Shown in pieces: positions 25,498 to 26,311 of a stretch of 64,000 nucleotides of DNA. A model generated the notes under the pieces. It was not told the origin of the DNA, searched no databases, and saw only the letters and a program-made list of their open reading frames with translations. Source of the DNA: a virus (taxonomy: Duplodnaviria > Heunggongvirae > Uroviricota > Caudoviricetes); the IMG/VR virus record IMGVR_UViG_3300010163_000004, positions 72,935 through 136,934 of that record; one strand, given 5' to 3'. A program made the translations under genes and the position numbers. Each line of letters starts with the position of its first letter. Position 1 is the first letter of the stretch.

Positions 25498-25513
25498 TTG
25501 CGGAGGTAGGATT
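25498..25513. repeat. 16-nt direct repeat ttgcggaggtaggatt, copy 2. Starts at the homing-endonuclease stop codon. Matches the 3' end of the tRNA-like gene at 26233-26311.
   Basis: Exact match to 26232-26247. Confidence 0.7.
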
Positions 25514-26146
25514 ATTTCCAAATAAATTTATATGCAGTTTTCAATTTCCCTTTCACACATAAACTAATCTTCTAGCGAACACCTCCATTATAAGTTTTAG
25601 CATAGCCGTTGTCTACTAACCAATGTGCAGCATCAGCTATACTGTTCCAAGTTCTAATAAAGTTATTATTTAAGTCATATTGAGATATTGATACAGGCTG
25701 CTTACAACTTCCCTAGTAGAATTTGTTCTTTGGTATATTGTTTATATTTATTACCTTAGAAACTGTATCAACAGAACATTGCATTTTGATAGAAACTTCA
25801 ATCATTGTCATTCCGCTAGTATATAAAGAGATTATTTCTTTATAATCAAATAAGATAGTTCCATCCCCTCCTCTAGTAGCGTTATAGCCATTTGAGTATG
25901 TGTCTAGCTTATCTATAAACTGAATTTCATAAGAAGCTAATTCCCCCTCATCACATTCATACAGCTATTCGACTATAAAATTCTCTATACCATATTTATT
26001 CATGGCATTATATAGCGGCCTCTTCTTACATTTTTCTTTTTTGTAATCCCTACAATGCTCTTTAAATCTCTTAGTTACAGAATAAGTAGTTTTTCCAACA
26101 TACTATTTTCCGTTAATTAAATTTGTAATGCAATAAATATATCCCA
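25512..26146 (-). CDS. GIY-YIG homing endonuclease (about 211 aa) embedded in the tRNA array. Contains 4 in-frame TAG codons, so it is TAG-recoded.
   Basis: Translation MGYIYCITNLINGK[TAG]YVGKTTYSVTKRFKEH...LYNAMNKYGIENFIVE[TAG]LYECDEGELASYEIQFIDKLDTYSNGYNATRGGDG... ends at TAA. Missed by the standard-code ORF track. Confidence 0.75.
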
Positions 26147-26231
26147 TGTTCTATTCTTATTTAAAATTAAACGTATTAGTAAGATTAGCGTTATCCAACT
26201 CACACCACGTGGAGGTTCTTACTTGTGAGTC

Positions 26232-26247
26232 TTGCGGAGGTAGGATT
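26232..26247. repeat. 16-nt direct repeat ttgcggaggtaggatt, copy 1 (T-loop and acceptor 3' end of the CAT tRNA-like gene)
   Basis: Exact match to 25498-25513. Confidence 0.7.
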
Positions 26248-26311
26248 CGAACCGTTTATGACGATTTCTAGGTTATGAGCCTAGCGAGATGACCAACTTC
26301 TCTACTCCACG
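26233..26311 (-). tRNA. tRNA-like, anticodon CAT (Met/Ile2-like). C1-A72 mismatch. T-stem cannot form canonically. Possibly degenerate.
   Basis: Acceptor CGTGGAG/CTCCGCA, D arm GAGA-AGTTGGTCA-TCTC, anticodon arm CTAGG-CTCATAA-CCTAG, T-loop GGTTCGAATCC without a pairing 5' strand. Confidence 0.4.

Follow-up and report, generated by a model that had tools for sequence, protein, structure and literature searches.

In a 64-kb stretch of viral DNA (hereafter the window; Caudoviricetes, IMG/VR record IMGVR_UViG_3300010163_000004, positions 72,935 to 136,934), one of 22 transfer RNA (tRNA) genes, tRNA-Met(CAT), carries an insertion at its 3′ end. The inserted cassette is 734 nt long, runs from 26231 down to 25498 on the minus strand, and consists of a ribozyme, a 30-nt leader, an endonuclease gene and a second copy of the tRNA tail. 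We interpret it, with a probability of about 0.7, as a composite selfish cassette in which a theta ribozyme, a minimal self-cleaving ribozyme of the hepatitis delta virus (HDV)-like type, and a free-standing homing endonuclease have been inserted together at a tRNA 3′ end. An initial annotation of this DNA had recognised the endonuclease and proposed that it is a mobile insertion in the tRNA array, which filled and empty alleles with exact boundaries in close relatives bear out, but it had overlooked the 54-nt ribozyme that separates the tRNA from the endonuclease gene. Since the ribozyme is gained and lost together with the endonuclease, the nature of the element changes from that of a plain endonuclease insertion.

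The extent of the inserted unit is given by relatives that lack it. As a query we used the empty junction, composed of the T loop, the repeat and the downstream sequence (TTCGAATCCTACCTCCGCAAC.AAACTCC), a combination possible only in an endonuclease-free allele. This junction at tRNA-Met was found in 31 IMG/VR contigs of the same phage group, in which the same tRNA-Met is fused directly to the sequence that in the window stands after the second repeat; adding 734 nt to the empty allele gives the filled one. Filled tRNA-Met alleles are present in the window, in L001-L004 and in L012 (among the loci to which we refer by L numbers, 79 were retrieved by similarity to the endonuclease). The flanks fall into haplotypes A (including the window, L002 and L012) and B (including L001 and L004), and because each haplotype was seen both filled and empty, the polymorphism arose or spread more than once. 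Predicted empty junctions were likewise found at tRNA-Leu(TAA), in 34 contigs, and at tRNA-Pro, in 8, with flanks beyond the repeat identical to those of the filled alleles and with the ribozyme absent. All 73 of the 73 empty junctions at these three tRNAs are without a ribozyme, and no ribozyme-only allele was found at tRNA-Met, tRNA-Leu(TAA) or tRNA-Pro in this lineage. These three independent filled/empty pairs indicate that ribozyme, endonuclease and repeat come and go together. Different genomes fill different subsets of the sites: in contig 065177 the Met, Leu-TAA and Pro sites are all empty (Leu-TAG lay outside this check), and in contig 049479 Leu-TAG is the one filled site. The initial annotation had considered that the repeat pair might also stand in relatives without the endonuclease, a concern disposed of by the 31 empty alleles, which join the tRNA directly to the downstream sequence.

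The repeat that brackets the cassette is the 16-mer ttgcggaggtaggatt (minus strand AATCCTACCTCCGCAA), which occurs exactly twice in the 64 kb, where shuffled sequences give 0.29 expected matches even with up to 3 mismatches allowed. We therefore agree with the initial annotation that a 16-nt direct repeat derived from the tRNA 3′ end flanks the endonuclease. That it might be a general spacer of the array is ruled out by there being only two copies in the window and none at about 25 ribozyme sites without an endonuclease. As the first 1-2 nt of the downstream copy (R2) overlap the TAA stop of the endonuclease gene, the true duplication is probably 14 nt, TCCTACCTCCGCAA. The tRNA-Met itself is unusual: it has an initiator-like C1:A72 mismatch and no encoded CCA, it is the lowest scorer of the array against the Rfam tRNA model, and its T stem pairs poorly as a plain 5-bp helix (GT[CATAAAC]GG versus CCTAC, with two pairs on each side of an inserted bulge). 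More than 30 relatives keep both C1:A72 and the extra 6-7 nt in the T stem's 5′ strand, and the gene may encode a functional, if unusual, tRNA or else a tRNA-like RNA that has been conserved. The T arm had been taken for damage left by the invasion, an interpretation we reject: the same sequence, gtcataaacgg included, is present in all 31 endonuclease-free alleles, and the oddity is thus ancestral.

Directly 3′ of this tRNA lies the predicted theta ribozyme. Read 5′ to 3′, its segments are GACTCAC, A, AGTAAGA, ACC, TCCACGT, GGT, GTGAGTT, GG ATAACG CTAA and TCTTACT. They give a P1 of 7 bp (GACTCAC/GTGAGTT) that opens with a G1·U pair, a J1/2 of a single A, a P2 of 7 bp (AGTAAGA/TCTTACT), a P3 of 3 bp (ACC/GGT) with TCCACGT as L3, and a short P4. 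The CC in L3 can pair with the GG 3′ of P1 to form P1.1, and J4/2 starts with the catalytic C, that of CTAA. Cleavage is predicted 5′ of G26231, immediately 3′ of the tRNA discriminator A73; this G1 agrees within ±5 nt with the tRNA end, which is placed at 26232 by Rfam and at 26231 by ARAGORN. In the available portion of the supplement to Kienbeck et al. 2024 (PMC10879173), theta ribozymes are listed whose core and layout are identical, element for element, to those found here, and the exact window ribozyme is not among them. Theta ribozymes were reported in that study to cleave in vitro at G1, with G1 usually at the 3′ end of a phage tRNA.

A covariance model built from 14 theta variants gave the window ribozyme 68.8 bits (E 2e-15) as its sole match in the 64 kb, a score that is partly circular as the window site belongs to the training set. 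The independent evidence for the predicted ribozyme is the published motif together with covariation. Across the variants we observed 13 different P1 pairings, all with 7/7 (or 6/7) pairs, and a P2 that differs in nearly every variant; in L001 an A-to-G change leaves the P1 position paired, as G·T. Helices P1 and P2 are supported because pairing is kept while the sequences covary across these 13 variants. The covariance model found no theta ribozyme 3′ of the other 21 window tRNAs, the suppressor included, and it recovered true ribozymes (L009-11, L018, L021 and L033) that a first, strict descriptor had missed. An Rfam scan of 14000-47000 gave drz-agam-1 as the sole HDV-like match, at a chance-level E of 0.84, and Rfam holds no theta family; the ribozyme was recognised manually and then confirmed by comparison with published sequences. 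Minimum-free-energy folding recovered P1 and P3 with an uninformative z-score of -0.04, as expected for a pseudoknot. A 22-nt ribozyme-like match at 24456-24477, after a degraded tRNA-Met, was considered as a second ribozyme relic and is treated as chance, as it lies within a conserved open reading frame (ORF) start.

The ORF behind the ribozyme begins with MGYIYCITNLINGK, and TAG stands in frame as codons 15, 61, 145 and 192, which on the plus strand read 'cta' (26103-05, 25965-67, 25713-15 and 25572-74). The initial annotation had placed it at 25512-26146; the ORF is real, and the correct coordinates lie one base further along (Table 1). It also called the product a GIY-YIG endonuclease with four in-frame TAGs, and on this the ORF translation and the Pfam, PHROG and I-TevI comparisons agree. 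The protein matches Pfam GIY-YIG PF01541 (E 1.6e-8, above the family cut-off) and PHROG homing-endonuclease families (E 4e-26), while a match to NUMOD1 is weak (20.6 bits, under the 22.8 cut-off); helix-turn-helix Pfam families are precomputed on several of its close homologues. When the homologue alignment is used as a profile, residues 4-91 match the I-TevI catalytic domain (1MK0/1LN0), and among 28 homologues the I-TevI catalytic positions Y5, Y16, R27, H31 and N89 are invariant and E74 is nearly so. More than 2,500 homologues were found, and those among the top-listed matches are full-length. In a tblastn search of a phage collection, the best annotated matches are 25-47% identical, mostly over the N-terminal domain, and no T4-like phage occurs among the matches listed (41 of 263 matching records). 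We conclude that this is a free-standing GIY-YIG homing endonuclease, with cleavage activity and target specificity predicted from sequence. Several other identities for the element were considered and rejected. It is not inside a tRNA intron, nor would it be spliced out through the repeats, as no sign of an intron was found and the whole tRNA lies upstream of the cassette; a scan of 14000-47000 against Rfam found no group I or other intron family at E up to 1. A transposon is disfavoured because the sole ORF is the GIY-YIG endonuclease and no inverted repeat was seen by eye at the element ends, although no dedicated search was run. A promoter of its own, or an upstream terminator, was also rejected, as a consensus scan gave nothing above shuffle background, a scan whose consensus does not cover Bacteroidota-type promoters.

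From the sequence evidence, the endonuclease ORF appears functional if TAG is read as a sense codon, glutamine. The ratio of nonsynonymous to synonymous substitution (dN/dS) against close relatives is 0.07-0.17, which indicates purifying selection on the ORF with TAG as sense. Among 22 homologous genes taken from DNA, TAG occurs in 27 different alignment columns, and there is not a single internal TAA, TGA or frameshift. The residues opposite TAG in the homologues are mixed (K 85, Q 74, E 58, R 41 and others), with only some columns clear: the TAG192 column has CAA in L008-L011, the nearest homologues without that TAG, and alignment column 158 is Q in 17 homologues. The more distant homologues L023-L032 have zero TAGs. 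An amber suppressor tRNA with anticodon CTA is encoded in the window, and by its close similarity to the phage tRNA-Gln(TTG) it is of the glutamine type. The endonuclease has a TAG density of 1.9%, similar to the late genes. These lie on the plus strand from about 51.4 kb onwards (terminase and portal included), and their TAG-bearing ORFs have 4-28 in-frame TAGs each. The minus-strand block at 1-44 kb, in which the cassette lies, uses the standard code, and the endonuclease is its only clearly recoded gene: apparent internal TAGs of the other early ORFs are at ORF ends or are true stops, with 20667-21821 (-) ambiguous between two ORFs and a single gene whose one internal TAG is codon 232. In the standard code, 4 of the 53 early-block ORFs stop at TAG (12704-13165, 13158-13553, 21126-21821 and 44005-44331, all on the minus strand), and a suppressor would read through them later in infection.

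The suggestion of the initial annotation that the endonuclease would be translated only with the suppressor tRNA therefore stands, the TAGs being sense codons by dN/dS, the TAG columns and the Gln-type suppressor; this tRNA is needed for translation of both the endonuclease and the late genes. With four TAGs in a standard-code block, the nuclease would be made only once the suppressor is active. Borges et al. (bioRxiv 10.1101/2021.08.26.457843) proposed that reassigned in-frame stops delay an intron endonuclease of Agate phages until late infection and, by analogy, recoding here may delay DNA cutting to the late phase. A TAG-recoded endonuclease in a standard-code block would then be a natural case in which recoding serves, or is tolerated, as a timing lock on a DNA cutter.

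The same arrangement recurs across relatives of the endonuclease. Family members, considered at 38-93% identity, always lie just 3′ of a tRNA on the same strand, and the preceding tRNAs are of at least 8 types (Met, Cys, Leu-TAA, Leu-TAG, Pro, Asn, Ser and Glu). At the loci found through the endonuclease, 20 of 22 ribozyme matches end about 17-80 nt before the endonuclease ATG and one further ribozyme precedes a second endonuclease copy; in this lineage, 25 of the 26 detected theta ribozymes precede an endonuclease. In several independent cases the stop codon is immediately followed by a tRNA-tail repeat of 12-17 nt whose sequence is particular to each target (Met variants, Leu, Pro and an uncalled tRNA), the recurring tails being CCTGCTTCCGCTA, ATTCCCACTACCGCAA, CCACTTCGGGTA (Leu), TCCCGACATCTCCA, ACACTATCCAGA (Pro) and GACTCCCACTCCCTGAA. 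At three targets, the cassette meets the tRNA sequence near positions 59-62 on its right side and after position 73 on its left. The more alike two ribozymes are, the more alike their endonucleases tend to be (Spearman 0.41, Mantel p ~0.03), a tendency that is weaker for the upstream tRNAs (0.21).

We hypothesize that the cassette moves in the manner of T4 SegB. The initial annotation had named segB as the parallel, and this is the right analogy: the available portion of Brok-Volchanskaya et al. 2008 (PMC2330249) describes SegB as a free-standing GIY-YIG homing endonuclease in the T4 tRNA cluster whose 27-bp recognition site is based on the T-loop motif GGTTCRANTCC, which cleaves in the direction of the CCA end, and which in homing carries neighbouring tRNA genes along. 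The enzyme studied here would similarly recognise the conserved DNA of the T loop and cleave in the interval from there to the tRNA 3′ end, which would explain where the right junction (positions 59-62) and the left junction (past position 73) lie. With a genome that bears the cassette as repair template, the cassette would be copied into the cut tRNA gene, and R2 would be what remained of the 3′ tail of the target itself after homology-independent joining at the right side of the break. Alternatively, R2 may have originated as a staggered-cut duplication. GIY-YIG enzymes normally leave 2-nt overhangs, so that a simple staggered cut fails to explain a duplication of 12-16 nt, a difficulty for this part of our interpretation. 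The upstream tail copy would complete a working tRNA. The array would be transcribed through the cassette, consistent with the lack of promoter or terminator signals, and the ribozyme would cut after A73, so that the tRNA, its natural trailer having been replaced, would still have a defined 3′ end ready for repair and the addition of CCA. The same cleavage would free the endonuclease messenger RNA (mRNA) with a structured 5′-OH end. In this way the ribozyme may make the insertion nearly harmless to the host phage.

We also found signs of tRNA decay and rearrangement in the array. The initial annotation had described two neighbouring elements, CAT and Ala-like, as tRNAs that have lost their 3′ parts through the endonuclease. 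Comparison with L001 and L004, relatives whose copies are intact or less damaged, confirms the degradation of both, while the link to this endonuclease remains conjectural. Intact counterparts of the second tRNA-Met copy are called by ARAGORN at L001:2172-2245 and L004:4785-4858. Aligned to L001 and L004, the Ala-like element lacks 12 nt, the 3′ strands of the T stem and the acceptor stem. These 12 nt are the same segment that is duplicated at cassette insertions, which is suggestive of loss through endonuclease-induced breaks. In L005-L007 the endonuclease gene (3001-3636) is chimeric. Its first ~180 nt come from the paralogue that follows tRNA-Cys in L001 (100% identity over 1-120, 95% over 121-180) and the remainder is of the window type; the tRNA-Met and ribozyme are deleted between the paralogues, and the Met-type tail repeat is still downstream. 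This deletion shows that endonuclease-linked rearrangement does remove tRNAs in the array. Another truncated tRNA of the lineage is the tRNA-Leu(TAA) of L230 and L235, whose 5′ half is replaced by unrelated sequence and whose 3′ half is intact.

The coupling of theta ribozymes to endonucleases is looser outside this lineage. We drew an unbiased sample from IMG/VR with a 14-mer core, filtered by the covariance model, and obtained about 38 usable ribozymes. Only 7-8 of these precede the GIY-YIG family or its remnant and 2 are followed by an unrelated HNH_3 endonuclease within 10-16 nt, so we reject the idea that all theta ribozymes are linked to endonucleases. About 28 of the 38 (~75%), including all that follow suppressor tRNAs, are without an endonuclease, and the next feature is another tRNA or a small ORF; no tRNA-tail repeat was found downstream of about 25 ribozymes without an endonuclease. 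Conversely, some family members have no ribozyme (L019/L020, the first copy of L023, L024-27, L031-32, L034 and the second L001 paralogue); they lie 18-30 nt after the tRNA (97 nt in L034). Given these solo ribozymes and ribozyme-free family members, the ribozyme is neither exclusive to nor obligatory for endonuclease cassettes. That the solo ribozymes are relics of decayed cassettes has little support, as only one locus keeps an endonuclease remnant and a repeat: at L163:8265-8320 (on the same contig as L051) a tRNA-Met is followed by a theta ribozyme, the last ~34 codons of the endonuclease and the 17-nt tail repeat GACTCCCACTCCCTGAA, which indicates that a ribozyme can outlive its endonuclease. 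At L128:2343-2397 and L144:712-767 (-) a tRNA-Met and theta ribozyme are followed within 10-16 nt by an HNH_3 ORF of 158-160 aa (Pfam E 6e-11 and 4e-9), with no tRNA-tail repeat seen, and a second, unrelated endonuclease family is thus also found behind theta ribozymes.

The loose coupling bears on the alternative that the ribozyme is a resident tRNA-processing element without a role for the endonuclease, which landed beside it or drags it along as co-converted DNA, and that the empty alleles arose by deletion between the repeats. The many solo ribozymes, often directly before the next tRNA, and the endonucleases that do without one are what this alternative would lead us to expect, and a 16-nt direct repeat could mediate precise deletion. 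On the other hand, a resident ribozyme should be met alone at some tRNA-Met, tRNA-Leu(TAA) or tRNA-Pro, where all 73 empties lack it, and the other 21 tRNAs of the window have none. The second repeat lies beyond the endonuclease, which means that the duplication event enclosed ribozyme and endonuclease together, and ribozyme divergence follows that of the endonuclease better than that of the tRNA. We consider this alternative unlikely, if the most serious of those we weighed. Several points nonetheless count against a composite cassette. The co-divergence of ribozyme and endonuclease is modest, three quarters of the sampled theta ribozymes and a number of family members lack the partner, the covariance model was made from the sequences it scores, and the ribozyme may be a co-converted neighbour rather than an adapted part. 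Moreover, recombination between R1 and R2 would restore the empty allele, and some empties may be losses. Ribozyme cleavage, endonuclease activity and target specificity are, for this element, predicted from sequence and by analogy.

The initial annotation pictured instead a plain SegB-like endonuclease that invaded the array and erodes the neighbouring tRNAs, including the non-pairing tRNA-Met. That the endonuclease is mobile, that two nearby relics lost T-arm and 3′ segments, and that recombination between tandem paralogues deleted tRNA-Met and ribozyme in L005-L007 all fit such erosion. At the insertion site itself, however, the tRNA-Met is the same in every endonuclease-free allele, bulged T stem included, and is conserved and undamaged; moreover, the cassette ribozyme should preserve tRNA 3′ end formation, the opposite of erosion, and we judge this picture improbable. 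A still slighter chance attaches to R2 being a functional signal, whether in RNA, as an end-processing or decoy site of the endonuclease mRNA, or in DNA, by shielding the filled allele from being cut again. Its location directly after the stop codon recurs at several targets and its sequence is exact although the endonuclease gene has diverged (synonymous divergence, dS, ~0.36), yet it is missing or degenerate in the intact cassettes L009, L011, L014-17 and L018, is imperfect in L019, and always copies the local tRNA, as a remnant of the target should. We give practically no credence to the endonuclease ORF being a dead pseudogene whose TAGs are genuine stops. The standard code does put four stops in the ORF, and four early genes of the window seem to end in TAG; against this stand the low dN/dS, the 22 homologues with TAG in 27 columns and neither TAA, TGA nor frameshift, the full-length top-listed homologues, and a phage that encodes a Gln-type suppressor tRNA and heavily recodes its late genes.

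Compared with SegB, as far as the available portion of its paper goes, the window enzyme is alike in being a GIY-YIG enzyme inside a phage tRNA array that is missing from close relatives, and the interval that SegB cuts, from the T loop towards the 3′ end, is the interval duplicated here. The two differ in that this portion mentions no ribozyme, tRNA-tail duplication or recoding, all three of which the window cassette has, and in that the cassette abuts the last base of the tRNA. The ribozyme in turn shares with published theta ribozymes its core, its layout, a cut site at the tRNA 3′ end, the lack of an encoded CCA and a setting in a TAG-recoded gut phage. These were treated as elements of tRNA maturation or of the code switch, with suppressor tRNAs highlighted, and without mention of homing, endonucleases or mobility (PMC10879173). 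In that study 85% of suppressor tRNAs in ribozyme-bearing phages have a theta ribozyme; the suppressor tRNA of the window has none downstream. The sole ribozyme of the window belongs instead to an endonuclease cassette that is gained and lost.

HDV-like ribozymes also occur at the 5′ end of the R2 retrotransposon and of other non-long-terminal-repeat (non-LTR) retrotransposons, and the closest functional parallel to the window cassette is the HDV-type ribozyme of the R2 retrotransposon, which frees the element RNA from a ribosomal RNA (rRNA) co-transcript. Such ribozymes were reportedly described by Eickbush and Eickbush in 2010 and by Ruminski et al. in 2011. Both are selfish elements in the gene for a structural RNA, co-transcribed with it, in which an HDV-type ribozyme at the 5′ junction separates, or here would separate, the host RNA from the element mRNA. 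The R2 retrotransposon, however, is an RNA-mediated retroelement of eukaryotic ribosomal DNA, whereas the cassette would move at the DNA level into a phage tRNA gene and has no reverse transcriptase. Integrative elements, too, target tRNA genes and restore the tRNA 3′ end with a copy of their own. The cassette resembles them in its insertion into the 3′ part of a tRNA, the duplicated 3′ segment and the tRNA left intact, and differs in having no integrase or att recombination, in its 0.7-kb size and in encoding a homing endonuclease. With endonucleases of introns and inteins, including those of Agate phages (10.1101/2021.08.26.457843), it shares a self-processing partner that hides the insertion from the host gene; here there would be a single cut at the gene end without splicing or religation, and no group I intron was detected. 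The Agate intron endonuclease further differs in its code, TGA being read as Trp there and TAG as Gln here.

Taken singly, none of the parts is new: SegB is an endonuclease of a phage tRNA cluster, theta ribozymes have been described at the ends of phage tRNAs, and recoded endonucleases have been reported. Their coupling, a ribozyme and an endonuclease in one mobile unit, was not found in the literature searched: a full-text search, which left out most subscription journals, found no paper that combines an HDV-like ribozyme, a homing endonuclease and a tRNA. Homing endonucleases usually persist within self-splicing introns or inteins, and free-standing ones are thought to be harmless between genes. 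Our data suggest a third solution, in which a small self-cleaving ribozyme would let the element sit flush against a tRNA gene and leave it undamaged. More broadly, we tentatively propose, as a possibility with slightly less than even odds, that theta ribozymes belong, at least in part, to mobile homing-endonuclease cassettes, a new composite class of selfish element that keeps the tRNA functional and frees its own mRNA. If so, these cassettes would be a DNA-level counterpart of the HDV ribozyme of the R2 retrotransposon and a third strategy beside introns and inteins, and they could explain why identical theta ribozymes stand behind many tRNA types. Cassette mobility would offer theta ribozymes a route between tRNA genes and between phages, opening them to a reading beyond tRNA-maturation devices tied to a genetic-code switch.

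Table 1. Features of the cassette and of related elements in the window.
Feature	Position	Strand	Remarks
tRNA-Met(CAT), invaded gene, ~81 nt	26232-26312	-	ARAGORN; Rfam tRNA 38.5 bits
Repeat copy R1, AATCCTACCTCCGCAA	26232-26247	-	T-loop end via 3′ strands of T stem and acceptor stem to A73
Predicted theta (minimal HDV-like) self-cleaving ribozyme, 54 nt	26178-26231	-	Descriptor scan, published motif, covariance model
A/T-rich 30-nt spacer (5′ leader), ribozyme to endonuclease start codon	26148-26177	-
GIY-YIG homing endonuclease gene, 211 codons	25513-26147	-	4 in-frame TAGs; TAA stop 25513-25515
Repeat copy R2, leftover or duplicated tRNA-Met 3′ tail	25498-25513	-	Right end of cassette
Sequence directly 3′ of the tRNA in empty alleles, CTAAACTCCTTTTGTGGCTCTG...	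25437-25497	-	Leads to conserved 39-codon ORF 25317-25436
Degraded tRNA-Ala(TGC)-like element	24781-24846	-	Rfam tRNA 28.3 bits, just under threshold
Degraded second tRNA-Met(CAT) copy	~24506-24575	-	Without 8+2 nt of T arm; 1 extra acceptor-stem nt
Amber suppressor tRNA, anticodon CTA	45713-45785	+	Close paralogue of phage tRNA-Gln(TTG)

The terminase encoded in the window is 25-28% identical to those of crAss-like phages, and related contigs are 175-193 kb long. The early block also encodes a nicotinamide phosphoribosyltransferase (8970-10523, minus strand; PHROG 448, E 2.5e-181), an auxiliary gene for salvage of nicotinamide adenine dinucleotide. Upstream of the invaded tRNA-Met, a 148-nt spacer (26313-26460, minus strand) separates it from tRNA-Cys and is itself an insertion/deletion polymorphism. 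L012, L096, L106 and L110 lack it and have 4-6 nt between the two tRNAs, and in L001 it comes after the second endonuclease paralogue; its centre looks structured and partly conserved, with no Rfam match. Further along, ARAGORN calls an 83-nt 'tRNA-Tyr' with anticodon ATA (26622-26704, minus strand; Rfam tRNA 52.9 bits), at whose position no tRNA is called in the close relative L002. A near-threshold match to RAGATH-14 (42163-42370, minus strand; 138 bits against a gathering score of 149, E 4e-25) adjoins the tRNA-Leu(TAA) at 42066-42135, and 1 kb from it is a weak hammerhead-like match (41065-41156, minus strand; RAGATH-1/Hammerhead_3, ~29-34 bits). These two may be further ribozyme-associated RNAs of the same tRNA-rich block.

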